DNA of 64,000 bases, taken from Emiliania huxleyi CCMP1516 (taxonomy: Eukaryota). Below the pieces are notes generated by a model. It saw nothing but the letters and a program-made list of their open reading frames with translations, was not told the DNA's origin and made no database searches. Of the stretch, positions 1 through 53,499 are shown in pieces (position 1 is the stretch's first letter; each line of letters opens with the position of its first letter). The stretch covers positions 961,081 to 1,025,080 of the forward strand of contig NW_005201287.1 in the NCBI RefSeq assembly GCF_000372725.1, read 5' to 3'. A program made the translations under genes and the position numbers.

Positions 1-441
1 GGCCCGGAGGCTACGCAGCTCGGCCTCGACGGACGCTTCGGCCGAGTCGAGTGCGCCGAGCGCCGAGCTGATCGCCTCGAGGTCGAGCTCCTCCGGGTCG
101 AGCGCCTCGGCGCTCAGCTCGACCTGCTCCGCCGCCGCCTCCGCGCTGCCGCCCGGCTCTGCCGCAGCCGTTGATCCACGGAACGACGAGTGGTCGTCGC
201 CGTCGAGTTCAGCTTGCCCGCCACTCTCCTCTGCCGCCGCCTCCCGCAGCAGCAACGCCTCCAGCGCCTTGTCGAGGGCCGCCGGAGAGGCGCATGCCGA
301 GGCGAGCGCACGGGCAGCCGAAGCGGTGGCGCTGCGCGGCGCGCCGGCACGAGCAGTCACTGAGGTGAGCGTCCCTTTGGGCGCGACGCCGACGGTGCTC
401 GTCGCCAGTGAAGCCTCGACTGCCGCGGACAGCGCTGGCAT
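1..441 (-). CDS. 5' part of a hypothetical Ala/Glu-rich, coiled-coil-like protein; runs off the window edge
   Basis: Minus frame is open from ATG at 441 to base 1: MPALSAAVEASLAT...AAEQVELSAEALDPEELDLEAISSALGALDSAEASVEAELRSLRA, with high-GC3 codon use. The start may lie further upstream. Confidence 0.45.
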   Translation of the reverse strand, partial: MPALSAAVEASLATSTVGVAPKGTLTSVTARAGAPRSATASAARALASACASPAALDKALEALLLREAAAEESGGQAELDGDDHSSFRGSTAAAEPGGSAEAAAEQVELSAEALDPEELDLEAISSALGALDSAEASVEAELRSLRA

Positions 442-837
442 GCCGATCAGGAACCACCACCACGGGGATGTCGTGTCGGTGAATGCTTCGCGGATGCGCG
501 CCAACTCTACGATCCTGCCTGTTTGAGCCACCCCGAGAAGAGGGTAGACGTATGTGCAGTGTGCAGATGGCCGAATTGACTTTTTGCTCTGGTTTTAAGG
601 CCCTGTTGGCTGTTGCACGTGTGCCTTACACACATGATCTCTCAACCGCAGGACCTTGGCTGGCGCAGAGTCCTTTGGCGCGGGCTCTCTCGGCTACGGG
701 ACGGGCCCCAGGTTCGGCTGAGGGCTGACAAGTTGACAAGCTGCCGCGGGCCCAAATCACGGGAAGGGCAAAAAAACGACCAAGCACCGAGTTTGTAGGC
801 CGGACCACGGCGCGTCGCGCCCATACCACAGACGCGT

Positions 838-1377
838 ATGCTCTCTCTCGCCATCCTCGCGCCGCTGTCGTGGCCACCGGACCCGCCATCGCTGCCGCCG
901 CGTCCGCCGCCGGCGCTGCCGACCTGCACCGGCGGCGCGTTTAAGCAAGAGGAACGCAGGGCTTTTGAGGTGTTGGCACGCCTGCTTGGGCGAATGCAGC
1001 GGTCTTGTATCTCCAGACGGAGAAGAAAGCCCGAACCCCGACCAGGGCGCGTTCTCTGGCGCGGGATCAAGGGGGTCGAGGCGCCAGAAAGGTTCGTCTC
1101 GAGAGGCGGGACTGAGCTGGCGCCGATGTCTACGACATCGGATCTGCGGGTCGCCGTGCGATATGCCAGAGGCGTATCGAAGTCGCTCATTTTCATGTTG
1201 CGCGTCGACAACTTCATGCAAGAGGGCGCTGACCTGGCGTTCCTCTCTGCGTTCCCGCAGGAGCGCGAATTCCTGTACCCGCCCCTGACCTTTCTGGCGC
1301 CGCTCAAGACCCACCACCTTCGACACGACGGGACTCAGTACACTATCCTTGAGGTAGTTCCTCACTACCCTTCTTGA
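838..1377 (+). CDS. NAD+:arginine ADP-ribosyltransferase (ART, R-S-E class) domain protein
   Basis: Motifs VLWRG (catalytic R), MSTTSD (S-T-T/S) and SAFPQEREFLYPP (E-x-E) occur in the canonical order. Confidence 0.8.
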   Translation: MLSLAILAPLSWPPDPPSLPPRPPPALPTCTGGAFKQEERRAFEVLARLLGRMQRSCISRRRRKPEPRPGRVLWRGIKGVEAPERFVSRGGTELAPMSTTSDLRVAVRYARGVSKSLIFMLRVDNFMQEGADLAFLSAFPQEREFLYPPLTFLAPLKTHHLRHDGTQYTILEVVPHYPS

Positions 1378-1758
1378 CTCTTCTTCTTCTCTCCACCGGG
1401 CACCCCACATGAGCGCATCCAACCACTCCTCTACTCGTCTCAAAGTTCATGCCGCGCTCGAGGCAGTCGCCAGTCGCTCTCTTAGTACTCGCACTGCGTA
1501 GAGCCGCGTTGCGCGTACAGTTCTTGACTTCGCACAGTGTTACGGTAGTTAGAGTGACACACTGTTTTACTTTTAGAGAGCACACACAGCGAATGGAGAG
1601 TGTGGACTGTCTATTCGCTCTCTCTCGGCGCGTGTGCTTGAAAAAGCGGTGTACGTAACGAGACGTGTGTCACAAAAATTGCTAGTGTACGTGGACGGTG
1701 TGCATACACACAGCTCACAAGCCAACACGGACGTCGTGTCCTGACGAAACGGTTAATT

Positions 1759-4700
1759 CTAGCTCCCCCGACGCAGCACAGGCGGCTTGGTCACCCAAAG
1801 CTGCCCTGCACTATCCCTATCGACCAGCGGAGTGCTCCCGGCGGCCCACAAGTGGCCCGCGTGCCGGCGGTGCGTGTGGACGCTCTGCCAATGGGACTCG
1901 CGCGCAATACCATGCCAGCGACTGCGCGGCACGACAACCGGCGCCCGGGCAAGTAAGCGCGACGCGCTGCCGGGCGCGTAGCCGCCGCCGCGGGCGGCGG
2001 CATTGGCGGCGGCCCCAAAGAGGACGGTGTTGCGAGAGAGTGCGTCGAGCTCGGCGTCCATCTTGTCGAGCCGCACCTTTGACGTCTGCGCGCGCAGCTT
2101 GCTTCTCGGGGTGCGAGGCTTGAACGTGCGGCGACGCGGCGCCGGCGGCCTCCATTCCGGCAGCGTCCTCTGCTCGCGCATCTCGTCGAGCACGGCGCGC
2201 GCCTCGGCGAGCCTGCCCGCCTGACCGGGTGACAACAACAGAGTCAGAGGACTCCTTCATTCGGTGCGCCTCGGGCGAGCCCGGCCCGCCTCGTAGAGCT
2301 CGCTGATCAGGTCCTGCTCCCGAGTCGCGTTTGGCGCGAGCAGCAAGCCTGACGGGAGAGAGATGAGCGGCCCTCGCCCCACGGCCGCTCGGTCTCGGCT
2401 GCCTCTCGGCTGCCTCTCGCTCTCGCGCCGTGAGCGCGGCCCGCCGCGAGCAGCGAGACGGCGTCCTCCACAGCGCCGCTCAGCGTGAAGCCGAGGACGA
2501 GCTCTTGGCCAAACGTCCTCTGCACCTCGGGCGCGAGCCAGCGGCTCGACGCGCTGAAGATGGCGCGGCCCGCCTCGAGCAGCTGCCTGTTTGCGGGCCG
2601 CCCGCCCGACGGCATCACAGCGCCGACCAAGTACTGCACCGCGCCTGACAGACGCCACCGACACCAGTGACTGGGCAAGGCTCCACCTGCGGGTCAGTCT
2701 GCTGCACCGACGCCGTTCTGCTCGGCCGGGTTGGCCGCCGGCAGCAGCCCCGAGCGGACGCCCCACCGGAAGACCTGAGGGGCGTGTCCCGGGACGGTTC
2801 ATGGACGTGTCCTCGGGGCCGAGTAGAGGAGTCCCGCCGGAACGCCTCGAGGGCGAGCGGCGCGTCCGCGTGCAGCTCGCAGCCGCGCAGCAGCGTCATC
2901 AGCCCGACGATGCACGCGAGGTCGGCGCGGTACGCGCGGGTGAGCTCCGCGTACCTAATTAAAATCTTCATAATCATCACCGATTTAATATTATTTAATC
3001 AGGCGCGGGTGGGCTCCGCGTACCCGGTGCGCAGCAGCCCGGCATTGCGGCAAGCGAGCATCACCTACTCGCAGCCTTCTGCTCCTCGATGGAGAGCTGT
3101 CTGTGGAGGGCCTGTGGCACGCGAGCGTCGCCGTCGCGACGTGCGGCGGGTCGAGCACCTATTAAACAATATCAACACTACTCACCTTTTTAAGATTATT
3201 TAATTAGTCGCGACGTGCGGCGGGTCGAGCACTTTCCCGCCCTCCTCCTCGACCTCGTGCAGCAGCGTCACCGCCAACGTTGCGTCCGCCGCGCGCGCGC
3301 ACGCGACGAGCGCCGCAGACAGCAGCTGCCGGTGCTCGTTGACCTGCGTCGCACTCAGCTTCCCGCTGGCGCCGCGCCGCAGCCGAGGAGCGACGCGCGC
3401 GCGCCGGTAGAGGGCGACGGCGTCGGAGGCGGCGCCGCGGGAGCCGTGCGCGCGGATGGCCTGGTCGACGTCCCACCGTCTGCTAATTAGGAGAGAGTGC
3501 GCCAGGGAGAGTCCCCCCCCCGGAGAGCCCCCCCCCCCCCGTTTCTGCGCCCCGTTCTCCGCCGCCGCCAACCCTCCCGGGGAGAGCTAGCTCGCCTCCG
3601 CCTACTCCTAGCCTCGCCTCCGCCTACTCCTAGCCTCGCCTCCGCCTACTCCTAGCCTCGCCTCCGCCTACTCCTAGCCTCGCCTCCGCCGCAGAAGAGA
3701 CGCCCTCGCCGTACAGACGCTCCTCGAAGAGGCGGGCGCCTACGCGTACGCATCGGGAAGGGTCGTGGAGGGTGGCAGCGGGGGCCCGCTCCTTCCCAAG
3801 AGAGGCGGCGGCCGAGGGACGGCTCGATCCGCACGAGACCCGACTCGGCGCTCGCCATCATCAGCCTAAGGGCGCCGAGTCGCGCGAGTGGCGCGGCGAT
3901 GTGCGCGAGGAGGAGTGCGCCGGAGGGGGAGGGAGGGAGAGCCGGGTGAGGGTCCGGCTGAGGACGCGAAGCCCGCGCTCCGATGCAGACTGCCACAGAG
4001 CGAGCGCCTCGTCGCCTCTGCCGGCGAAGACGAGCGCCTCGAGAAAGAGGCACATCGGCCTACAGGAGAAGTCGAGGGGCAGCTCCGAGCACGGCTCCTG
4101 GAGGCGCGTCTCGCGGAGGCGGCTCCCCGGCCTACACCACCACAACCACCGCGCGGGTGACGGCCTGCCTCCCGCGGCCACTTGCAGGGGCAGTCTCCCT
4201 CGCACCGCTGCTGCAGAGGGATGTGTCTAGGAGGTGTCTAGGAGGTGTCTAGGAGGTGTCTAGGAAGTGTCTAGGAGGTGTCTAGGGAGTGTCTCCCTCG
4301 CACCGCTGCTGCAGAGGGATGTGCAGAGTGCGGCACGAGTGCGAGTAGATCTGCAGCGCGGTGCTGACGTCGCCTAGGGCCAGGGCCGGGGCCGAGGTCG
4401 GGCGTCAGGTGAGGAGAGCTGCGACGAAGTGCTGATGTCGCCGCTGATCGCGCAGACGGAGAGGAGCGGGTTGAGGACCTCCGCCGCAGCATCCGCCTCG
4501 GACAACCCTCCCTCCTCGGCGCCGCCCTCCGTTGCCGGGCGCAACTCAGCCGTGTTACCAGCCTCGTCAATACCCTGCTTGCCGCCGCCCCGCGCGCCGC
4601 CCTCCGCGCCGCCCCCGGGCCGAGGCAGGACGGAGAGGCCGCAGTCCATCCGCAGGTGCTCCACCACCTACAGGAGGAGATACGAGCCTCGCGGCAAGGT

Positions 4701-5486
4701 GCCTCTGCGCACTGCGACCCCCGCCGCTCGACCGCCAAAAAGGCGATGCGCAGCAGCAGCTCCTCGTGCTCGAGCGGCTCGCCGCCGACGACGCCCCACT
4801 CGTCGCTCCCGCTGAGGAAGAGCTCCGCGCTCTCCACCTACCAGCCTCACACCGCCGCCTCGCCCTCCCGGCACGCCGCAGGCGAGGCTGCCGCAGCCGC
4901 TCGCCTCGGCCGCGGCACTCCTCGCCGCCTCGCCTCGCCTCGCCGCCTCCTCGTCGCGCCGCGACGCGTCGGTCGACGAGAAGAGCTCGCGGTACGGGTC
5001 GCTCTCCTCCCACACGTCCGGCGGCGTGGGCGGCAGCCTCAGGTCGAACCGGTAACCCTCGCTCATCTGGCGGAGCAGCGAGGCGGCAAAGCCGGGCGTG
5101 CAGCGCGTCAGGCGGGCGCTGCGGTGCCTGAGGTAGAGCTCGCCGGCGAGGCTGCCCTGGCCGAGCTCACAGCAGTTGCGGAACGCGGTTTGCATCGCCG
5201 TATTCAGGTAGTCGTTTGACTTTTGATTGCGATGAGCCTCCGACGCCAATCCGATGGCGGCGTCCCTCTGCCTGACGGCGTCCTCCATCTCGAGGAAGAG
5301 GCGGCGCACCAGCCGCTCGTTGAGGCGGAGGAGGCCCTCGGCAAGCGGGTCGGGCGGCTCGTCGTCCTCGCGTCCTAGGCTTGGCGCCGGAGGAGGAGGC
5401 CGCAGGGCGACGCTGCAGAGGTTCGCTGCATGCCGGCGCGATCGGCGGCCAGCGTCCCCGGAGGCCACTCGCAGCAGCCGGAGCAT
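1759..5486 (-). CDS. Multi-exon (roughly 14 introns) PPR-like alpha-solenoid protein, probably organelle-targeted
   Basis: The spliced reading gives PPR-like helices: LISELYE|AGRLAEARAVLDEMRE, LLSAALVACARAADATLAVTLLHEVEEEG, VLDPPHVAT|VMLACRNAG, LEALVFAGRGDEALALW. The N-terminus is Arg-rich (MLRLLRVASG). Removing short GC/GT-AG introns restores the frame. Confidence 0.65.
3591..3690. repeat. 22-bp tandem repeat (CCTAGCCTCGCCTCCGCCTACT)n, about 4.5 copies, intronic
   Basis: Visible directly in the sequence. Confidence 0.9.
4226..4290. repeat. 11-bp tandem repeat (GTGTCTAGGAG)x~6 between identical 33-bp direct repeats (4193-4225 and 4291-4323)
   Basis: Visible directly; lies in a predicted GC-AG intron at 4227-4324 (minus). 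Confidence 0.9.
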
Positions 5487-5649
5487 GCCGCACCGGACAC
5501 AGCCCGGCAGAGGGCTTAGCAGCGTCGGAGGAAGCAGGATCAGGCTGGGCAAGTGCCTTCGTGCCTTCTCGCGGCGCAAGACGGCGCCGGTCGTGGAAAG
5601 TTCAAGCTGGACCGTTTCTTTCTGTGTGTGTTGGAACTATGTTAGGTAA

Positions 5650-6138
5650 TTGCCTGGAACTAGCTTGCCGAACTTGAGCTCTGTTGCTCGCGCCACCGCC
5701 TGCAGACCTTCTGGAATGCGCTTCACCGCCGGCTGCCTGCCACCGCTCCACTCCGCGGTCCGAACGACGGTCCCGAGCATGGCGAGCCCGCTCGACGCCG
5801 TGGCCACGCCGCTCACCAAGTTTCAGGGGAGCGGCGTCTCCAACAGCAACCCGCTTGCCGACGCGCCGTTTGAGGTGCTGGCTCTCTTTGCCGTCATCCT
5901 CCTGGCCGGCGTCGGCGGCCTAGTTCGCGCCTCGGGCGTGCTCTCGTCGGCGGCTCCGACTGTCGGTCTTGGAGAGAGCCGCGAGGAGCTCAAGGAGGAG
6001 GCGCAGCAGGCTGCGACCGAGGAGGCGGAGATGACGCAGGCGGAGAAGGAGGCGATGTACTTCAAAGAGATTCGTAGCGAGCTGGCAGCGAAGCGCGGCG
6101 GCTCGGGAAAGAAGCGAAAAAAGGCGCGCAAGAAGTAG
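5650..6138 (+). CDS. Small single-TM protein with a Lys-rich C-terminus, possibly plastid-targeted; start uncertain
   Basis: Hydrophobic segment FEVLALFAVILLAGVGGLV, then an acidic helix and the tail GKKRKKARKK. Confidence 0.6.
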   Translation: MPGTSLPNLSSVARATACRPSGMRFTAGCLPPLHSAVRTTVPSMASPLDAVATPLTKFQGSGVSNSNPLADAPFEVLALFAVILLAGVGGLVRASGVLSSAAPTVGLGESREELKEEAQQAATEEAEMTQAEKEAMYFKEIRSELAAKRGGSGKKRKKARKK

Positions 6139-6290
6139 CGCAGGAGGGTCCTGTTCTTGAGGTCATGCTTGAGGTTGCACGCGGTGGTCGAAAAATATGT
6201 GCGTCATTAAACATGCACATGTATGTGGGAGGCGCGCGGAACACACGGTACACACGCACACACGCACCTCATCTGTTTAAAAACATCCTC

Positions 6291-8287
6291 TCAGCACGCC
6301 TCTTGCTGTGCTGCGTGCGCGGTCTCGTGCGGCGGCGGCGGCACGACGAGCTGCGGCTCGCCGGGCACCGTGAGTGAGGCGGTGCAGGGCGGCGTGATCG
6401 CCACCAGCGGCGCGGAGTACGGGCTTCCGCCGGGGCCGCCGCTGCTGCGGGGCCCGCTGCTGCGGGGCCCGCTGCTGCGGGGCCCGCTGCCGCACCGGTC
6501 TGTGTTTGCGCGACTGTTGATCACGCGTCCCGCGGACGACCAGTCCATCAGCAAGCAGTAGGTCAGGCCGAAGAGGGCGAGCGGCGCCTGGGCGATGGTC
6601 GTGGCGCCGACGCAGAAGGCCAGCTTGCGAGGCACGGAGGAGGTGGCGAGGTCGGTGAGGGCGAGGGCGCCGACGACGGGCGAGGCGACGGCGTAGAAGC
6701 AGAAGAAGGTTGCTCCGATCGAGAGGAGCGGCTTGCCGAGCGGCACGAAGAGGCACATCGAGCAGATCGAGAGGATGCGGGTCTGCATGTGCGGCAGCAG
6801 CACCCAGAGGATGGCGCCAAAGGCGTCTCGAACCGCCTCGTCGTTGCTGACGGCGTGGGTGACGGCGCCGCTCGCGGCGAGGAGCGCGACGTTGTACGCC
6901 GCCACCAGCACCGACGCGATGCCGATGAGGAGGAAGAAGGCCTTCTTGGCGCCCGGGTCGCGCTTCCCGAGCAGGGTCATCGTGCGGACAGAGACCACCT
7001 GGATCCAGCCCTGCTGCGCGGCGGAGAGGGCCTGCGGACATGGCGTGGACGTGTCATCGACATGTCGTGGACGCGACCCGAGGATCCAGCCGTGCTGTGC
7101 GGCAGGCCTCTAACCCTAACCCTAACCCTAACCCTAGCCCTAGCCCTGCTGCGCGGCGGGCCTGCTCGCACTGCACCCAAATGGCTCCCGCCGCCACTTG
7201 CGCGGTCGAGACGCCCCGCACGTTGGTGAGCGCAACCAGCTGCAGCTCGAAGATGAGCCAGCCCGAAAAGTTCGACGCGATCTGCGGCAGCGTGAGCCGC
7301 GCGAACTCGCACACCTCCCTGCGGCTGAAGAGGGGCGCGTGCTGCTTGCCGCGCGGCAAGAAGAGCGGCAGGAGGCCGAACCACCACGCGAGGCCGCACC
7401 ACACCACGATCCGCGAGGCGCGCACCGTGCTCCACGCGACGGCGGCGCCGAGCACGCCCCACCGCCAGCGGTAGATGAAGGCGTACCTAGGTGAAGGCGT
7501 CAGTGGCCGTTCTTAGTCAGGCGCCGAGCAGGCCCCACCGCCAGCGGCAGAGAGAGGCGCGCGAGCAGAGCACGTCCAGGCCGAGCCCGGTGAGCAGCGA
7601 GTTGAGCGAGGCCTAGGGTTAGGGTTAGGGTTAGGGTTAGGGTCAGGGTTAGCCGAGCCCGGTGAGCAGCGAGTTGAGCGAGGCCGAGCGAGCGTAGCCG
7701 CACGAGACGAAGACGGCTTCGATCTGGATGTCGAGCAGCAGCAGCAGCGCGCCGCCCGCCATGACACGCGTGTACGTCCCCACGGCGGCGGCGATGCTCG
7801 GCTCGACGCCGACGCACCGCAGGACGGGCGCAGAGACAAACTGGAGAGCGCACGAGGGCAGGCAAGAGAGGGCCGCGAGGACGACGGCGCGCCGGAAGTA
7901 GTGCGGTATCCGGTCCCTGCGGCTCGCGCCGATGCACCCGGGCAGCACGTTCCACAGGTAGGCGCTCAGGCCGAGCATCACCATCAGCATCGAAACGTTG
8001 AAGTAGACCCGCCCGTAGCCGAGCGCCGACTGCAGGTGCGCCGAGTCGGGCGTGGAACCCGCAAAGAACATGGTGATGAGAGGCGGTGCGCCCCACTCGA
8101 GGATGGCAGACAGGCAAAGCGGCACGCCCTGGCTGAAGAAGAAGCGCAGCTCGTTGCGAAGGCTGTACGGCGGCTCCTCGGCGCTGCTGCTGGCCGGCTC
8201 GGCCGCGGCGGACTCCTCCGCTTCGGGAAGCATGGTCTCGCGCTGCGTCTCGCGACAGGGGCTGTCGGGCGACAGGAGCTGCGACAT
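6291..8287 (-). CDS. MATE (MatE) family efflux transporter, 3 introns (7613-7684, 7487-7562, 7032-7161)
   Basis: Multiple TM segments; MATE-like motifs LRNELRFFFSQGVP, YAFIYRWRWGVLGAAVA, EFARLTLP...WLIFE, SVRTMTLLGK. The frame is restored by GC-AG introns. Confidence 0.85.
7111..7146. repeat. Interstitial telomeric repeat (CCCTAA/CCCTAG)x6 in a MATE intron
   Basis: taaccctaaccctaaccctaaccctagccctagccc. Confidence 0.95.
7614..7651. repeat. Interstitial telomeric repeat (TTAGGG)x~6 flanked by an identical 34-bp direct repeat (7580-7613, 7652-7685)
   Basis: Visible directly in the sequence. Confidence 0.95.
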
Positions 8288-8964
8288 GATCCGTCTCTGC
8301 CGTCGCGGTCGGACGGTCCTGCTCGGTCGGTCGTGGTCACGGTTCGGGCTCCCTACTCGAGTGAGGCGGGCTCCAACTGTAGGGTGGTCGGACTGTCTAT
8401 TGGGATCGACCCCAGCTATGGGCTCGAGAGTACTGTTGTACGTACTTTTAGCTTACTGGGAGAAAAGAGAGAGGGGGGTTGTGTTCTCTAGGCCCCTAGG
8501 GTTAGGGTTAGCTCTCTCTGTTGTAGGCCAGGTTGAGGAGATTACACGATCCCGGCGTGAGCAGGACTAACTGAGGGATCCGCTCCTGACAGTGGCATGC
8601 ACTGCGCTGCGGCGCGTGCCACTGTCTTTGTTTGAAGTTAAAAGTCGAATCAGAGCGCCGTCGGCCGTCGGCGCTGTCCCTCGTTTTCCTCCCACGGACC
8701 GCCCGTCCGGCACCGCTCGCTCCGGGACGCACGCCGGCGAAGCACCATCAAGCTGCTGTACGGCCCCGGCATCGCCTCCCCTGGCTTAGCTAGACTGAGA
8801 GACCATTGTGCACATGGTTGGTCTCTACAATATATACACTGACACTAAACCTCCCAGAGCTCGTCCCGGTCCGTCACGGCCATCCTCGGCCTCCGGAGGG
8901 CCCCCGACCGCGGCGCGGTGTGGCGGCGTCACAAATCCGACCACAGAGCACCACGAAACCACGA

Positions 8965-9463
8965 CTAAGGTGCCCACAGGGTCCAAAAAAGAAAGGAAAA
9001 AAGAAATGGGGCAAGCCCCATCGCAGCACTTCGTGTTGGAGAGTCGAGATATTGAGATTGTGACTAGGAGGAAGGGACGCTGGCGATTCTCAAAGGTATA
9101 CCCTTGGAATGGCCGGATCCAGCCTTGAAAGTACGAGATCGCGCGCGCTTCGCGCGCTGCACCGCCTGTTCTCCGCGGCTGAGTGACGACGCGTGCCGTG
9201 TGCCAGCAGAGTTGGGCGCGCGCGGCGCCGTCGGCGCCGGTGAGGGAAGGCGCGGGTGCAGCGGCCGCCGGCGGTCGTACCGCTCGCCGGCCAGGCAGCG
9301 CAGCAGCGGCCAGCGCAGCGGCCGCTGGCGCAGCAGCCAGAGCAGCCGGTGCGCGCCTTGCGAGGCGAGTACTGCCGCCCGGCAGCCTTGAGGCGGCCAG
9401 GCGGCAGTACTCGTTCGAATGTTGCGAGCCGTGCGCGCGCCGAGGCGCGCGCGGCGCGCGCCC
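8965..9463 (+). mobile_element. Dispersed ~500-bp repeat family A, copy 1 (probable non-autonomous element)
   Basis: Near-identical, same orientation, to 53000-53499 (e.g. ggggcaagccccatcgcagcacttcgtgt...aaaggtatacccttggaatggccggatccagccttgaaagtacgag). Confidence 0.75.
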
Positions 9464-9632
9464 TGGCCCATAACACCGCCCGGGCACAGACTCCCTACCC
9501 GTCGGATCACACAGGGGCCCCTCAGAGCAGCCCACACGATCACACACTCACACACACACATCACTGTGAGAGTCGTGATTTCTTGAGCATTTTCAAAAAT
9601 CTCTCTCTCACACAGGTGCGTGCTTCTCTCTC

Positions 9633-23066: not shown

Positions 23067-25111
23067 TCACGCCGCCACAGTCTCCGGCGCCGGCACGCTC
23101 AGCGACCCCAACGACTGCGCCGCGCCGTCCGTGGCGGCCTGTTCCTCGTCGCTTCCGGCGGCGGCGGCGGCGACAGCCTCGATGCGGCACGCCCCCTCGG
23201 CGGTCACGTCGACGCTCACGACGAGCCCCGACTCGCCTGGCGCGTTGTCGCACGCGTGCAGCGCGAGCGCCGCCACGGCCCGGGGCGGCTGCGGCGGCCC
23301 GTCGGGGGGAGAAACGGCGTCGGCGGGCGGCGGCGGCGGCATCTCGACGAGGCGAAGCACGAGCCTCTGCCCGGCGGCCGGCGGCTCGACCTGCAGCGGA
23401 ATCTTCCGGTGCAGCGGCACGCAGCTTCCAGCACAAACGAGGGGGAGGAAGGCGCCGCCGCCGAGCTCGAGGGCGAGAGTGCGCGGCAACCTCCGCCGCG
23501 CACTCGCTGCACCGGAGCGTTGCCAGCCGCCCGCGGAAGTGTCGCCCGCCGCCATGAGCGAGCCTACGGGCGAATAGCATGACGAGAGTCGCGGACCTGC
23601 CTCTGCGGCGGCGGCGGCCTCTCGTCGGGTGAACCGTACAGCGCCGCGCCGCTGGCCGCAGCCTCGTCGGACGTGGCGCCAAAGTGGAGTGTGGCGCCTA
23701 CATGACAACATGTCAGGGCCGTGTCATGGACATGTCTACGAGATGGCGCCAAAGTGGAGGGTGGCGCCGGGGAGCTCAGCGGCGAGGGCGGCCTGCACAC
23801 AAGGCATGCGGCAGCCGCCGCCCGAGAGCAGCACCTCGCGCACGCACCGCGCGCCCTCGAGAGCTGACGCCTCGCCGGGCGAGCAAGCGTCGGCGGCGCG
23901 CAGCGCCGCGCGGGCGACGGAGCGCACCGCCGCACAGAGGGGGCGGGCGAGGTCCTCGAGGCTCGCCCGCGAGACGGTGACAAAGTGGTCCGCCCCCTCC
24001 GCCTCGACGGCGATCTGCGCCTGCGGGACACCCCTCAAGAGTACGCCCTCGCGTGGACATGTCACGGACGCGCCCGTGGTCTCCCTCTCCTCCGGCGGCA
24101 CGTCTGCGCCTGAGTCCCGCCAGAGAGGCTCCGCTTGCACGCCTCTGCCGCCGCGCCCAGCCGCGCCTTCGCGCGCGCGTTGCCGGACAGGTCGACGCGC
24201 GAGCGGCGGCGGATGTCCTTGAGCGCCAGCGCCACCAGCGCGGCGTCCACCTGCGCAGCGCCGCGCGTCTCGTCCGACGCCGTCGAGGCAATGCTGAGCC
24301 GGGCGACTGCGCGCCGCAGCCGCGTGCTTCGCGGCCCCGCCGCAGCCTCCCCGCCGCAGTCAGCCCCCCCCTCGCCGCCCCCCTCCCCCTCCGCCTCCCC
24401 CTCCGCCTGCCCCTCGGGCTCCTCTCCAAGGTCCACCACCGAAGCAGACACGCAGCAGCCGCCCACGTCCACCACCAGCAGCCTGCGAGGTGCGGCGCCT
24501 CCGCCGCCCGCCGCATCGGCGCCCGCCCCGTCGCCGCCGGCCGCCGCCGCCTCGATCTCGGCCACGCGCAGCAGGGCGACAGCGAGCGGCGAGGGCAGCG
24601 CCAGCTTGACCCGCATGCCGCCGCCCCGCGCCGCCTCGAGCAGCGCGTCGGCGCGCGAGGGAGCGAGGTGCGCCGGCGTGGCGAGGACAACCTCGCGCAC
24701 CGGCGCGCCGCAAAACGAGTCCGCCGCGCCGCGCAGCCCACCCACAACCAATGAGAGCAGCCGCACCGCCGTGTGCGTCTTGCCACCCGGCACCGCCACC
24801 GAGACTGCGCCGTCCTTCTCGGCGGCAGACGTGAGGAAGCCCCAGCGAGAGCGCGCGGCCTGCACGACCGGGTCGTCGAAGTCGCGGCCGAGCATCAGCA
24901 GCAAGTCGCTCATCGTCAGCTTTGGGTTGCGTGCTGCCTGTGCGGCCGCCGCCTCCCCGAGCAGCGTTTCGCCGTCGGCGAAGGCCACGGTCGTCGGCGT
25001 CGAGCGCGAGCCCTGCTCGTTGGCGATGAGCTGCACCGTGCCGTGCCGCATCACCGCCATCGTGCAGCACGTGTTGCCCACATCCAGCCCCAGCACGCCT
25101 GCCGCGCTCAT
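23067..25111 (-). CDS. Atypical Hsp70-family protein (HSPA14/Ssz1-like), introns 24021-24109 and 23698-23767
   Basis: Motifs VLGLDVGNT, IANEQGSRSTPTTVAF, VVLATPAH, VVDVGG, AEACKRSLS, VLLSGGGCRMP, DEAAASGAALY; catalytic motifs are degenerate. Confidence 0.8.
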
Positions 25112-28135: not shown

Positions 28136-28529
28136 CAAGGTGGCAGGATGCAGTTGCAGCCCATCAACAAAACTTGGGCAGCAGTTGCAAAGCTGTTTCA
28201 TCCCTTAGTTGCAGCCTCAGTTGCACCCTGTTGATGTAGCACAACCTGAGCACAACCAGTATACTCTCTGTGGACATTTGAGGACATCAAGTGCCGGGAG
28301 TCATTGCCACTGTGCACAAAGGTGCTGTGCAGGCGCAGCACCGCAGCAGCGTCGCCGCTGCAGCAGCGTCGCCCCTGCAGCGTCACCGGCGCACATAGCG
28401 CAACTGACCACAGCGCTCATGGCACAAGGCTGGTGCCATGAGTCAGTGGACATTGCCACTGCACAAGGTGCTGTCCAGCAGCTAAGGGCTGCCAGTACCC
28501 CATCGCAGCAGCGTCGCCGCCGCTGCAGC
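28022..28529 (+). mobile_element. Dispersed ~510-bp repeat family B, copy 1
   Basis: Reverse complement of 48712-49229 (ggatgcagttgcagcccatcaacaaaacttggg...gctaagggct...gtaccccatcgcagcagcgtcgcc). Confidence 0.75.
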
Positions 28530-28645
28530 ACATCCAGGGCCGGGGAGCTAAGAAGCGCACCCAGCGGGCCGGATGATCGGGATCGGGTTACGGGCTAGAG
28601 AGCCCTAGCCCCGGGGGTGCGCGTTCGCAGGGCCGTAACACGGGT

Positions 28646-28786
28646 CTCCGAGGGTTAGTCCGCGCTCCAGGTTTCCCCTAGCAGCGGAGCGCCCCCTCCA
28701 CTCGGAGCTAAAGAATACTCTCCGAGGGTTGGACCCGCGTACCAGGTTTCCCCTTAACTGCAGAACGCCCCCTCTACTCGGAGCTA
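28646..28786. repeat. Imperfect tandem duplication, ~74-bp period
   Basis: ctccgagggtt...ccaggtttcccct...cgccccct.actcggagcta occurs twice (28646 and 28720). Confidence 0.8.
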
Positions 28787-31059: not shown

Positions 31060-33381
31060 CTACGCGCCTGCCGCATCCGTCGCAGACGTGATCCTCTTCG
31101 GCGTGATCCTCTCCGTCGCCTCTTCGATGGCGGTGGCGATGTCCGGGTAGGCGGCGCCGCCGTGCTTGCTGTTGTCGAGGCCGGCGTCCTCGACTTCTTT
31201 CGAGATGCGGAGCAAGCCTCCCGCCATGAGGCCCGAGAAGAGGATCGCACTCAGCGCGCCGACCCAGAGGGTGATGAAGACCGTGCCTGCGGGGCAGGGG
31301 CGAGCGTCGGAAGGGAAAGAGAAGAGGGCGCACTTTGACGCGGGAGCGGACCGACGATCTGCGTGGCGAGCAAGAGGCCATCGCCGCCGTAAAAGACGCC
31401 GCACGCCGTGCCAGACTCCGTGTAGGAGTAGTCGCACGTGCAAAAGAAGCCGACGGCGAGGCAGCCCCACAGACCGCACGCGCCGTGGACAGCGAAGGCG
31501 TCGAGCGGGTCGTCGATCTTGAGCCTGCGCATCAAGCACGAGGCGCCGTGGTAGAAGAATGCTCCGATGAAGCCGATGACGACCGACGCCCAGATCTCGA
31601 CGGTCGTGCAGCCGGCGGTGATCGAGACGAGCCCTCCCAGCAGCGAGTTGCAGGTGTGGCCGAGGTCCCACACGCCGGGCGACCCTCCGCAGGAGCCGGG
31701 CGCGAAGCGCTTGAGGAGGATCCCCGTGGTGGCGGCCTAGGGTTAGGGTTAGGGTTAGGGTTAGGGTTAGGGTTAGGGTCAGGGTTAGGAGGATCCCCGT
31801 GGTGGCGGCCTAGGGTTAGGGTTAGGGTTAGGGTTAGGGTTAGGGTTAGGGTTAGGAGGATCCCCGTGGTGGCGGCCTATTAGGGTTAGGGTTAGGGTTA
31901 GGGTTAGGGTTAGGGTTAGGGTTAGGGTTAGGGTTAGGGTTAGGGTTAGGGTTAGGGTTAGGGTTAGGGTTAGGGTTAGGGTCAGGGTATGGGTTAGGGT
32001 TAGGGTTAGGAGGATCCCCGTGGTGGCGGCCGTGGCGGCGGAGAGCGTCGTCGTGACGGCGGCGCGGGCCGCGTCGCGCGCGTAGTTGTGGAGCGCGAGG
32101 GTTGAGCCCGGGTTGAAGCCGTACCAGCCGAACCAGAGCAAAAAGGTGCCCAGCACTTGCAGGGACGCCGACTGGCCGGCGAAGGCGTCTGCGGGGGCGA
32201 CGCGTGCGCGTGAGGGAGGAGGCGGGGCAGCCGCACCGAAGCAGGCGGGTGCGCACGTTCGGGCAGCTCTCCGAATCGGCCCTTGCGAGGTCGGATGATG
32301 AAGGCACCGGTGAAGGCGCAGATGCCTCCCGTCATGTGCACGACGCCGGAGCCCGCAAAGTCGACCATGCCTGCGGACGGGGCGGGGCGGGGCGGGTGAG
32401 GGGAGGGGGCGGTGGCATTGTCTGCTGGAGGGGGGGGGGAGAGGGGCACCAGTGAGCATCGCGTCCTTGTTAAAGGCGGAGAGGAAGCCGTGTTCGTCCC
32501 ACACCCTGCGGCCAGAGAAAAAGGGGTGACCGCTGTTCAGACGTCTGCCACCCCTCCCGGGGTCTGCTCCCCCTCCCCGGGGCTAGCCCCTGGGCTGGGA
32601 GCGTAGTACGCCCGTCGCTGCAGATGCGGAGCGAGGCGAAGGCTGGCAATGGACGCTCCCCGGGGCAGCTGCGCGCGCCAGTGCACCACCGTCGGGTATA
32701 CGAAGCCGACGATGGCGAAGACGTACGCGCAGTAGCCAACCAGCGTGCACCGCTCCGCCACAGCGCCGGACGTGATGGTCGCTGCCGCCGCCGCAAAACA
32801 GTACTGGAAGAAGAAGAAGACGGCGTCGTGCCCGTAGTCCTTTTTGCCGGTCGTGTCGTCGGCTCCGGAGAGGGCAAAGTTGTGGCCGCTGCCGCCGATG
32901 AAGGCGTTCCCGTCCTCGCTCTTGTCATAGGCAAAGCCGAACCCAATGAGGTACCTAACAGCAGCGGGCTGGGCTGAGCGCGCCCGCGAAGGCCCCGCTG
33001 ACACCGCTCCGGCCCTCGGACACCAGACCAGCCCGCCGAAGCACGCGTCCATGACGGACTTGAGAAGGATGTTCTTGACGCTGCGCATGCGTACCGATCC
33101 CGCCGAGAGCAGCGCGAAGCCCGCCTGCATGAGAAAAACTAGAGCCGCGCAAAAGAGCAGATAGAAGGTGTTCGTCTCGCTCTGCGACCGGGTGCACGAG
33201 GCGTGAGTGGGCGCAAAGGGCGGCGCGGCGCGCCAGCTGTCGCCGCCGGGCGGACCTCGTCAGCTTCGAAGCGGACCTCGTCAGCTTCGAGCTGTCCGCG
33301 CAGCGCCGTGGCGCAGGCCGTCAGCGAAGACACGTTGGCCGTGACCTCTGGACCGAAGTTGCAGGCCGAGAGAGGAGTCAT
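31060..33381 (-). CDS. AMT1: Ammonium transporter (AMT1 family), multi-exon
   Basis: Motifs [96 protein letters not shown]. Confidence 0.95.
31714..32031. repeat. Four identical 24-bp exon-derived repeats (AGGAGGATCCCCGTGGTGGCGGCC) separated by three TTAGGG arrays
   Basis: Copies start at 31714, 31787, 31854 and 32008; the spacers are telomeric hexamers. Forms AMT intron 31737-32030. Confidence 0.95.
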
Positions 33382-40947: not shown

Positions 40948-41400
40948 AGATTGAGATTGTGGATTGCAGATCGCTGAGCAGCAACACGGGCCAAAATGTG
41001 GGAGATAGCGATAGGAGATAGAGAATGCAGATTGTAGATCCTAGCGCCCAGCCATCCGCCCCAGATGTGAGATCGAAGATTGAAAATGGAGGTCGTAGAT
41101 TGCTGCCGGCGGCGACAGTGGCCAAGTAGAAGATTGGAGATCGGAGACGAGAGATGGTCAGTGTGAATGAATCCAAATTGCATCTCCTTGAAGGTTTGAG
41201 CCCCCCTCCTCCCCCGGGCCCCCGAATCGAGATTGGAGATTGGAGATTGGAGATGGAGATCGGAGATCTGACTGAATCCGGCCTAAGATGACGACGTTGG
41301 GAGATTGGAGATTGAAGATGGAGATCGGAGTTCTGACTGGATCCCGGCCTTAGATGACGACGCTGTGGATTAGAGAGTATTGGAGATGGGGAGATCGGAG
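40948..41400. repeat. Purine-rich (GAGATTG/GAGATCG)n low-complexity tract including a ~70-bp duplication
   Basis: gagattggagattggagatggagatcggag.tctgactg..atccggcct.agatgacgacg occurs twice (41230-41365). Confidence 0.75.
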
Positions 41401-47833: not shown

Positions 47834-48711
47834 ACACACACATGTGTATTCCGGCGAAAGAAGAATTCGCGCGGTTGAGGGAGAAACTCCCCCCCGGCAA
47901 ATGATCGCAGTGGGCGTCAGAAGAGTCGTCCTTGCGCGAGGAGAGCTCGATAAACTCGAGTTGCCAAAATATGCCGCGAGGAGTTGGTTCTTGCACTTGT
48001 GCAAGATTGGGCGTCTTCTGCAGCAGTCCCTTTGTTTGATGGGAGGCCCCAGGGTGGGGGCCACCTTGAACCCCTGGCCAGGGATTCGAGCGGAGGGTGC
48101 CCCGGATTCATCTATCCGTAGGGCCCCGGTACATTCATTAGAACTGATCACTTTGCGCAGCAGCCGTCCCTTCGCCACTGGACGGCAGTGCGCTGCGCTG
48201 TCGCTCTGTCGAGCACGCTCTCGTGCTTCGTTGTGACGCGGGAGTAAAGTTGAGAAGCAGCCCTCGACGAGACGACCGGCGCCGCGATGCCGGACCTCAC
48301 CGCCGCCGAGCTCAGCATTCCGGCCGAGCAGAACCCCGATCCCGCAAAATCACTGGTAATTCCTGTCGACTCAACAGTGGTATCCTCTACCCGGCGCTGC
48401 ATTCCGTGGTCGGTGGTGAACAATCCGGCCTTCCTCAATCTGCCGCCCCTCCTCCTCCAGGGATGCAAGCGTCGTGGGTCCAGATTCCGCAGTGGGCCGC
48501 CATCAGTGGCCTTCTCCCGTTTTGTGAGCCCGATCCCGCTGTGGCCAGCTACTTTGATAGACTCAGCGTCCTGCGGCTGTCCATCTTGGCCGCGGCGTGG
48601 CGCCGCATCCTCGGTGCCTTGTCCGACCTTGGCGTATTCGCCACAGTGCACGTGGATGAGGACGCCTGGTCTCCATTGCGCTTTGTGCACTGGCGACGCT
48701 GCAACGGCGAC

Positions 48712-49229
48712 GCTGCAGCGGCGGCGACGCTGCTGCGATGGGGTACTGTAGCCCTTAGCTGCTGGACAGCACCTTGTGCAGTGGCAATGTCCACTGACTC
48801 ATGGCACCAGCCTTGTGAAAGGAGCGCCGCTGTGGTCAGTTGCGCTTTGTGCGCCGGTGGCGCTGCAGGGGCGACGACACTGCAGCGGCGACGCTGCTGC
48901 GGTGCTGCGCCTGCACAGCACCTTTGAGCTTTGTGCACAGTGGCAATGACTCCCGGCACTTGATGTCCTCAAATGTCCACAGAGAGTATACTGGTTGTGC
49001 TCAGGTTGTGCTACATCAACAGGGTGCAACTGGAGAGGCTGCAACTAAGGGATGAAACAGCTTTGCAACTGCTGCCCAAGTTTTGTTGATGGGCTGCAAC
49101 TGCATCCTGCCACCTTGGACACCTCGACACCTCAGAGATGCCTCTTGACAACACTCGACACCCGCTCGACACCCTCGACACCCTCAACACCCTCGACACT
49201 CCTCGACACCCCTCGACACCCCTCGACAC
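48712..49229 (-). mobile_element. Dispersed repeat family B, copy 2 (inverted relative to 28022-28529), ending in CCTCGACAC satellite
   Basis: Reverse-complement match read directly. Confidence 0.75.
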
Positions 49230-52999: not shown

Positions 53000-53499
53000 C
53001 TAGGGTGCCCACAGGGCCCAAAAAAGAACGAAGGAAAAAAGGCATGGGGCAAGCCCCATCGCAGCACTTCGTGTCGGAGAGTCGAGATATTGTGATTGTG
53101 ACTAGGAGGGAGGGACGCTGGGGATTCTCAAAGGTATACCCTTGGAATGGCCGGATCCAGCCTTGAAAGTACGAGATCGCGCGCGCTTCGCGCGCTGCAC
53201 CGCCTGTTCTCCGGCGCGGCTGAGTGACGACGCGTGCCGTGTGCCAGCAGAGTTGGGCGCGCGCGGCGCGACGGCGCCGGCGAGGGAAGGCGCGGGTGCA
53301 GCGGCCGCCGGCGGTCGTACCGCTCGCCGGCCAGCGCAGCAGCGGCCAGCGCAGCGGCCGCCGGCGCAGCAGCCAGAGCAGCCGGTGCGCGCCTTGCGAG
53401 GCGAGTACTGCCGCCCGGCAGCCTTGAGGCGGCCGGGCGGCAGTACTCGCTCGAGCTTTGCGAGCCGTGCGCGCGCCGAGGCGCGCGCGGCGCGCGCCC
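53000..53499 (+). mobile_element. Dispersed repeat family A, copy 2
   Basis: Near-identical to 8965-9463. Confidence 0.75.

Follow-up and report, generated by a model that had tools for sequence, protein, structure and literature searches.

Exon copies at intron starts and a segregating intron in a PPR-like gene of Emiliania huxleyi point to intron gain, probably by break repair

The window analysed here is a GC-rich stretch of 64,000 nucleotides (64 kb) from Emiliania huxleyi CCMP1516 (contig NW_005201287.1, positions 961,081 to 1,025,080), and the subject is an intron-rich PPR-like gene on its minus strand, at 1759-5486, many introns of which begin with a copy of the following exon. The original prediction, made from the letters alone, had described about 14 introns in this gene, most of them with such a copy, and it presupposed that the region is one transcribed gene. 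That it is one transcribed gene is supported by the RNA contigs of four runs, each of a different study. Of 20 runs, eight were compared with the window, including four DNA and four RNA runs (X2-X6, X10, X12 and X16-X20 were left out). Relative to the window, the RNA contigs have 13 joints on the minus strand, from 2214 to 4902, 12 of which are present in all four RNA runs, while the joint 4834->4902 is listed in two of the four and the contig of a third run breaks there too. Resolved to GC/GT..AG ends, the joints define 14 introns between 2221 and 4904, as predicted; the ends of 4838-4904 and 2349-2428 were set by hand around single-nucleotide polymorphisms (SNPs), and the joint 3065->3207 skips 141 nt, which are 67 + 74, with a 27-nt exon retained. 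The spliced frame is open over 802 amino acids (aa) and is identical, without gaps, at 800 of 802 residues to P0042, a transcript-type protein that is one open reading frame (ORF) of a 2611-nt contig.

The 802-aa protein matches the Pfam PPR model below threshold (E 1.6e-4, 22.1 bits against a cut-off of 25 bits), the same model is matched by 20 of 23 homologues, and the predicted structure is a helical solenoid whose top 11 Foldseek matches are all PPR proteins (E 1.7e-8, low TM-scores). The modelled tandem helix-turn-helix repeats agree with those of PPR proteins, and the product is accordingly called PPR-like here; homologues of the gene were found in Prymnesium parvum and Chrysotila. Eleven of the donors are GC and three are GT, the acceptors are AG, the donor is preceded by G in 13 of 14 introns, and the phases are distributed 7:4:3. 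Twelve introns are 67-80 nt long and the remaining two 223 and 244 nt. The features of the gene are given below in the order of transcription; the copy score compares the 5' end of an intron with its own next exon, and its null consists of 182 wrong intron/exon pairs (p<0.05, uncorrected).

1759-5486, minus strand: PPR-like gene, coding sequence (CDS) for 802 aa in 15 exons, ATG at 5486, RNA contigs at about 1650-5584
4838-4904, minus strand: intron, GC-AG, 67 nt, copy not significant
4668-4735, minus strand: intron, GC-AG, 68 nt, weak copy (p 0.044)
4374-4441, minus strand: intron, GC-AG, 68 nt, copy score 17
4227-4324, minus strand: insertion of 98 nt, made up of an 11-mer repeat filler and a perfect 33-nt duplication that spans a donor
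4060-4303, minus strand: intron, GT-AG, 244 nt, compound (98 + 74 + 72)
3866-3942, minus strand: intron, GC-AG, 77 nt, copy not detected
3740-3812, minus strand: intron, GC-AG, 73 nt, decayed copy, score 10
3461-3683, minus strand: intron, GC-AG, 223 nt, 22-nt tandem repeat extending over the donor junction, without copy signal
3159-3232, minus strand: intron, GT-AG, 74 nt, consisting of a 26-nt perfect copy and a 48-nt AT-rich filler
3132-3158, minus strand: micro-exon, 27 nt (VLDPPHVAT), in the insertion allele only, otherwise the end of a 255-nt exon
3065-3131, minus strand: intron, GC-AG, 67 nt, copy 13/16, donor GC opposite exon GT (Val codon)
2955-3023, minus strand: intron, GT-AG, 69 nt, copy 20/21, AT-rich filler
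2775-2845, minus strand: intron, GC-AG, 71 nt, decayed copy, GACAYGTCC motif in the filler
2645-2713, minus strand: intron, GC-AG, 69 nt, short copy
2349-2428, minus strand: intron, GC-AG, 80 nt, 11-mer repeats, copy not detected
2221-2289, minus strand: intron, GC-AG, 69 nt, decayed gapped copy, score 16

Nine of the 14 introns exceed their own null, i.e. their 5' end copies the following exon (3159-3232, 2955-3023, 4374-4441, 2221-2289, 3065-3131, 3740-3812, 2775-2845, 2645-2713 and 4668-4735), and with the same score and null no copy signal is found at the donor of 4838-4904, 4060-4303, 3866-3942, 3461-3683 and 2349-2428. The summed copy score is 137 against a permutation mean of 53.6 and was reached in none of 100,000 permutations (p<1e-5), and when the two best introns are dropped it is still 92 against 46.6 (p 4e-5), whereas the mirror control, in which the 3' end of the intron is compared with the upstream exon, is null (p 0.16). 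The claim that most introns carry an exon copy thus holds, and so does the predicted ranking of the copies by identity, apart from 4227-4324: the copy called identical at 3159-3232 matches at 26 of 26 positions and the near-identical one at 2955-3023 at 20 of 21, the count of 13/16 for 3065-3131 was obtained again, the moderately decayed copies of 2221-2289 and 4374-4441 lie above the null, and the barely colinear one of 4668-4735 is the weakest of the nine. The following exon begins with GC or GT in all 14 cases, including the five introns without visible copy; the background for such an exon start is 0.21 per site, and p is 3e-4 even when the preceding G is granted.

The segment 4227-4324 had been taken as an intron with an identical copy. 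Its repeat is indeed 33/33 after a first-base mismatch and runs over the donor into intron sequence, but as a separate intron it had to be rejected, as the RNA removes 4060-4303 in one piece (GT..AG) and the segment is a duplication inside this one 244-nt intron. A changed letter at 4324, to be expected if 4227-4324 were spliced, is not among the RNA differences listed; in the window's own allele the segment could conceivably still be an intron of its own. The unit 4060-4131 of the same compound intron begins, directly after an internal TAG, with a copy of the next exon that has decayed, and the internal TAG|GC at 4132/4131 could serve as a recursive (zero-length exon) splice site. Among the other introns, a relative seems to have an intron with microsatellite-like sequence at most 1 nt from the site of 3740-3812, as judged from the homologue fragments P0027 and P0029; the fragments P0025-P0029 cross the intron positions, and the molecule behind them may be DNA or RNA. 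A branch-like motif CTRAY occurs in only six of the 14 introns, and a fixed branch motif was not adopted.

The intron with the perfect copy, 3159-3232, is present in some alleles only. In the DNA contigs X8 and X9, 3132 is joined to 3207 and exactly 74 nt are missing, and the same 74 nt are missing from L001, a contig of a separate metagenome assembly, which keeps the other introns within its span of 942-3521. The insertion is present in the window, in X7 as an unbroken read-through and in X1 at about half depth, and P0004 ends in the read-through that is expected from the insertion allele. The word size of these run assemblies and indexes is, as we take it, 31. The 26-nt repeat is shorter than such words, which makes an assembler collapse of 3159-3232 unlikely. 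At about 99% identity, all DNA sources would seem to belong to one species, so that this is a presence/absence polymorphism within a species. Among the matches listed from the four DNA runs, no DNA skip was found at any other intron of the gene, and none of the other introns covered by L001 is skipped there. The 27-nt exon VLDPPHVAT, which was predicted correctly, is simply what is left between the new intron and an older donor. As a side observation, in the RNA run X14 two haplotype contigs with depths of 11.4 and 20.6 apparently join to give one of depth 32.1 from which the 74 nt are missing; provided that the insertion is on the second haplotype, this would agree with splicing, but it is a weak hint and is not used as support.

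The anatomy of the insertions is the same in each well-preserved case: on the sense strand a copy is followed by a filler that ends in AG and by the second copy. The duplication of about 20-35 nt (26, 21, 33, 33, 23 and 24 nt in the best-preserved cases) supplies the donor, and the filler of 35-60 nt supplies the AG. The empty site of 3159-3232 has the sequence AAA|GT, and 48 of the 74 inserted nucleotides are foreign filler; it is therefore the duplication that has given the donor, and the filler that has given the acceptor. At 4227-4324 the copy includes intronic sequence, and thus the template was DNA or unspliced RNA and not spliced mRNA. At three Val codons a donor GC stands opposite an exonic GT, and homologues mostly have V, I or L there, so that some GC donors were likely GT at insertion (a fourth case, 4838-4904, was left out of the count, its exon being polymorphic). 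The fillers are of several kinds. Those of 3159-3232 and 2955-3023 form an AT-rich pair, identical at 34 of 49 positions in the same orientation (p 1e-4, mononucleotide shuffles), without a further copy elsewhere in the window; telomeric hexamers are found at 7613-7684, 7032-7161 and 31737-32030, all in neighbouring genes and not clearly in the PPR-like gene, and 11-mers at 4227-4324 and 2349-2428. The motif GACAYGTCC occurs four times in the 64 kb, always on the sense strand of copy-bearing introns, in three genes, and the count alone gives p 0.04. The 2013 genome paper of Emiliania huxleyi is said to have noted 10-11-bp intronic repeats, and the telomere repeat of this alga is presumably TTAGGG. 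The 11-mer pattern has no match in viral or prokaryotic collections, as expected of algal DNA; at 4219-4294 and 2393-2419 contigs of DNA as well as RNA runs cover the 11-mer repeats to great depth, which indicates abundant genome-wide families, some of them also in RNA contigs.

Introns of this kind probably arise by repair of staggered breaks, which duplicates exon bases and leaves a short filler between the copies. A staggered DNA break would be repaired with fill-in, by which about 20-35 bases of exon are duplicated and the filler is inserted between them. Where the duplicated bases begin with GC or GT, as a rule preceded by a G, and the insert amounts to about 67-80 nt, the upstream copy would act as donor and the terminal AG of the filler as acceptor, and as splicing would restore the mRNA exactly, the insertion would survive. 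The fillers would stem from several short repeat-like sources, namely the AT-rich family, telomeric hexamers and 10-11-mers, and such heterogeneous sources would fit repair synthesis or capture better than a single transposon. Later on, the intronic copy would decay, the filler would drift towards GC richness and some GT donors would become GC, and further events of this type at a splice site already present would lengthen introns by steps of about 70 nt, which would explain the composition of the 244-nt intron (98 + 74 + 72) as well as the three stacked units of 31737-32030.

The alternative that survives best, although it is rather unlikely, is that the insertions are introner-type mobile elements or 5'-truncated tails of non-LTR elements, which have a long target-site duplication, bring their own acceptor and obtain the donor from the duplication. 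In the introners of Symbiodinium and Polarella (classes 4, 5, 6, 8 and 10) the 3' site is carried and the 5' site comes from the target-site duplication (PMC9860276, Fig. 2B; 10.1101/2020.10.14.339549), and the splice-site logic is the same here: the donor is the start of the upstream duplicate, the acceptor the end of the insert, and the mRNA is unchanged. For dinoflagellate introners it is also described that a 3-9-bp duplication gives the donor, that the next exons start with GH and that donors drift towards GC (review: PMC11282704), and similarly, in the present introns the next exon starts with the donor letters and some donors have likely drifted to GC with age. The kinship of the AT-rich fillers, several fillers that start with CT and end with AG, and the second motif family (GACAYGTCC), common to four introns, likewise fit an element. 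Those introners, however, have duplications of 3-9 bp whose length is constant within a family, as against duplications here that vary over about 21-40 nt. Their inserts are near-identical within a family and frequently bear terminal inverted repeats; the present ones are short, repeat-like and of mixed kinds. The youngest filler and its sole relative are about 30% different, terminal inverted repeats in the AT-rich fillers are not significant against shuffles (p 0.07 and 0.08), telomeric fillers are present in both orientations, and the AT-rich filler pattern matched only this locus in metagenome contigs, though in an exact-match search, which is a weak one. The introner known from a haptophyte, that of Chrysochromulina with a 4-bp duplication, has the opposite polarity to the present introns (PMC9860276).

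Compared with break repair, it is quite improbable that the introns are old, that the absence of the 74 nt is a precise loss, and that gene conversion or selection has kept the similarity to the exons. That introns can be lost precisely by way of cDNA is recognised (PMC3443670), and the orthologues that could polarise the change are distant ones. Yet the introns that lie 27 and 228 nt away from 3159-3232 are retained in the insertion-free alleles, the polymorphic intron is the very one that has the perfect copy and an AT-rich filler, and the copies elsewhere are accumulating SNPs and indels (4417, 2710) rather than being kept. Distant orthologues are also without these introns: P0023 and P0053 are single ORFs on contigs of up to 12.7 kb that span 13 of the 14 intron positions, and P0071 is a single ORF on a 58.8-kb contig that spans eight of them, none interrupted by introns there. 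Given the perfect copy, the retained flanking introns and the intron-free orthologues, 3159-3232 is more likely a recent insertion that is segregating than the remnant of a loss, and the prediction that intron gain has continued is borne out to this extent. An artefact of assembly or annotation, with misassembled repeats or a region that is not one gene, is hardly credible and largely refuted, as independent RNA and DNA contigs reproduce exons and introns and P0042 agrees at 800 of 802 residues; two other DNA skips, 4192->4291 (98 nt, X7) and 7584->7657 (72 nt; X1, X8 and X9), have repeats of 33-34 nt that could collapse in assembly, which is why both were set aside as evidence for polymorphism.

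The original prediction had also proposed that the intronic copy works as a molecular clock, and this stands only in part. The youngest intron can be told from the rest, as the perfect copy is the polymorphic one, and decay is visible as polymorphism within copies: a SNP at 4417, within the copy of 4374-4441, destroys a match in all four DNA runs, and of a polymorphic 1-nt indel at 2710, within the copy of 2645-2713, L001 has the form closer to the exon. Copy score also falls with rising GC content of the filler (Spearman rho -0.58, p 0.04, n=13; rho -0.68, p 0.002 when five scan-selected introns of other genes are added), but not significantly without the two AT-rich introns (p 0.36). The compound introns show that what a copy dates is the most recent duplication at an acceptor and not the birth of the intron; the clock, which has 20-30 informative bases and is reset by re-duplication, is a coarse one for the last event.

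The signature is not restricted to the PPR-like gene. The window scan found it at about 10 loci, where block-shuffled windows gave 2-6 raw matches, and three other genes have introns of this type:

7613-7684, minus strand: intron of the neighbouring gene, GC-AG, 33/33 exon copy and a telomeric (CCCTAA)n filler that ends in CCCTAG; RNA (X11)
7487-7562, minus strand: intron of the neighbouring gene, GC-AG, exon copy score 27
7032-7161, minus strand: compound intron of the neighbouring gene, GC-AG, 130 nt, two exon copies, telomeric repeats in opposite orientation
23698-24109, minus strand: predicted introns of an Hsp70-like gene, 23698-23767 and 24021-24109, both with exon copy
31737-32030, minus strand: predicted compound intron of an ammonium transporter gene, three units, each a 23-nt exon copy with telomeric repeats

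In the neighbouring gene all three introns have the signature and are supported by RNA; the gene itself (5710-8290, minus strand) is transcribed and membrane-protein-like, with an open frame of 577 aa over three introns, and a Pfam search with three of its exons found no match. In the Hsp70-like gene the signature is present in two of three predicted introns (the ends of the third could not be fixed), and the ammonium transporter has an open frame of 456 aa with introns placed from the sequence only and one further 5' intron not placed. The telomeric fillers of 7613-7684, 7032-7161 and 31737-32030 occur in both orientations, and the repeat of the C-rich strand resembles a branch-point motif. 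Gain had been predicted to be gene-selective, with intron-less neighbours. Intron density is indeed uneven, as the 2.4-kb CDS of the PPR-like gene is split by 14 introns and nine single-ORF genes (17.6 kb) have none, an unevenness reached in 0 of 100,000 simulations with 13 hand-picked genes, but three other genes have the signature too, and gene age or origin could explain the density as well as selection. The MFS gene is intron-less, since a transcriptome protein has equal length and 429 of 431 identical residues, whereas for the GH27, CHI-like and fn3 (surface-protein) genes this is read from their single ORFs. In UniRef, a protein that clusters with the MFS protein carries the name Emiliania.

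Some further features of the window were noted in passing. Tandem units of 65-76 nt with GT/GC..AG-like ends lie outside the listed ORFs at 28645-28786 and 41235-41400 and may reflect the same duplication process in untranslated regions or non-coding DNA. Dispersed repeats of about 200 nt form the pairs 9200-9480 with 53250-53490 and 28340-28530 with 48670-48900. At 5904-5930 (seven substitutions in 27 nt) and 6190-6280 (many small indels) the window differs densely from most runs, and this clustering suggests a divergent local haplotype. L001 matches the window from 942 on, and as its positions 1-1933 are unrelated to window 1-941, the two differ in structure within the ORF at about 840-1376.

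Several points weigh against an origin by break repair. The break is deduced from the anatomy alone; the evidence concerns genes of the 64-kb window and includes a single robust polymorphism. Five of the 14 introns have no copy at the donor, and in the ammonium transporter gene this is the case for five of six predicted introns, two of six not being followed by GC or GT. The two related AT-rich fillers would suit a mobile element too, and it is on these two introns that the correlation of copy identity with GC content within the gene hangs. The distant orthologues, at 27-40% identity, could have lost introns. Finally, in at least two of the four RNA runs (X11 and X13) the contigs carry a variant at 3425 that is also found in L001, so that they probably represent insertion-free alleles, and the splicing of 3159-3232 itself is presumptive.

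Among the known routes of intron gain, of which the tandem duplication and break-repair models have been reviewed (PMC3443670), the introns of Daphnia pulex are close to the present ones: they are attributed to repair of staggered double-strand breaks, with repeats of 4-12 bp shared with the exon in 33 cases, and they have the presence/absence polymorphism, the direct repeat between intron and one adjacent exon around an inserted stretch, the decay with age and the secondary lengthening insertions that are found here (PMC4202315). Unlike there, the repeats here are two to three times longer, always at the 5' end, present in most introns of one gene, and they supply GC donors. The tandem genomic duplication model has in common with our case that an exon duplication gives a precisely spliced intron, but in that model a duplicated AG|GT yields both splice sites and the intron contains nothing but duplicate (PMC3443670), whereas here the filler is foreign and at the empty site of 3159-3232 the GT is not preceded by AG. 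The interstitial telomeric sequences that have been inserted in mammals at double-strand breaks (PMC2246262) resemble 7613-7684 and 31737-32030, where hexamers are likewise flanked by a duplication; in mammals, however, a duplication is found in a minority (6/130 rodent and 4/25 primate loci), and these insertions are not tied to intron creation in the accessible text of that study. Direct repeats of 4-30 bp near splice sites have been reported broadly (PMC11782384). In Emiliania huxleyi, many non-canonical introns have been noted (PMC11347168), and GC donors make up 56-65% genome-wide, a majority shared by the PPR-like gene and ascribed to genomic GC content (PMC4028052); the accessible text of PMC4028052 mentions neither exon copies nor intron gain, and the main text of PMC12130899 mentions neither haptophytes nor Emiliania. 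A published description of long exon copies or of intron polymorphism in haptophytes was not found in a search that did not cover the supplements of introner surveys, which possibly list E. huxleyi. What is new here in comparison with donor-recruiting introners and break-repair introns are the much longer duplications, the mixed fillers and the live polymorphism.

How new introns originate has long been asked, and gain can be seen under way in few species. Here, a segregating intron retains its empty site, its duplication and its filler and stands next to older introns at various stages of decay, and as DNA and RNA data of this alga are abundant and public, gain rates, fixation and donor evolution are directly testable. 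As the fillers are short and mutually unlike, screens based on introner families would miss this class, and annotators should be aware that duplicated exon starts shift or hide junctions. The recruitment of donors from GC-rich coding DNA would help to account for the GC-donor majority of this alga and offers a mechanism for it beyond base composition. It is possible, though we would sooner doubt than assert it, that most introns of Emiliania/Gephyrocapsa were made, and are still being made, by one break-repair routine that combines an exon duplication of about 20-35 nt with a fill of short repeats, telomeric or other, that brings the insert to about 70 nt in all. If this is true, the one routine would explain why GC donors prevail, why introns are rich in repeats and why they grow stepwise, every intron could be dated to its last duplication, and the rates of birth, fixation and decay of introns would be measurable in one abundant species.

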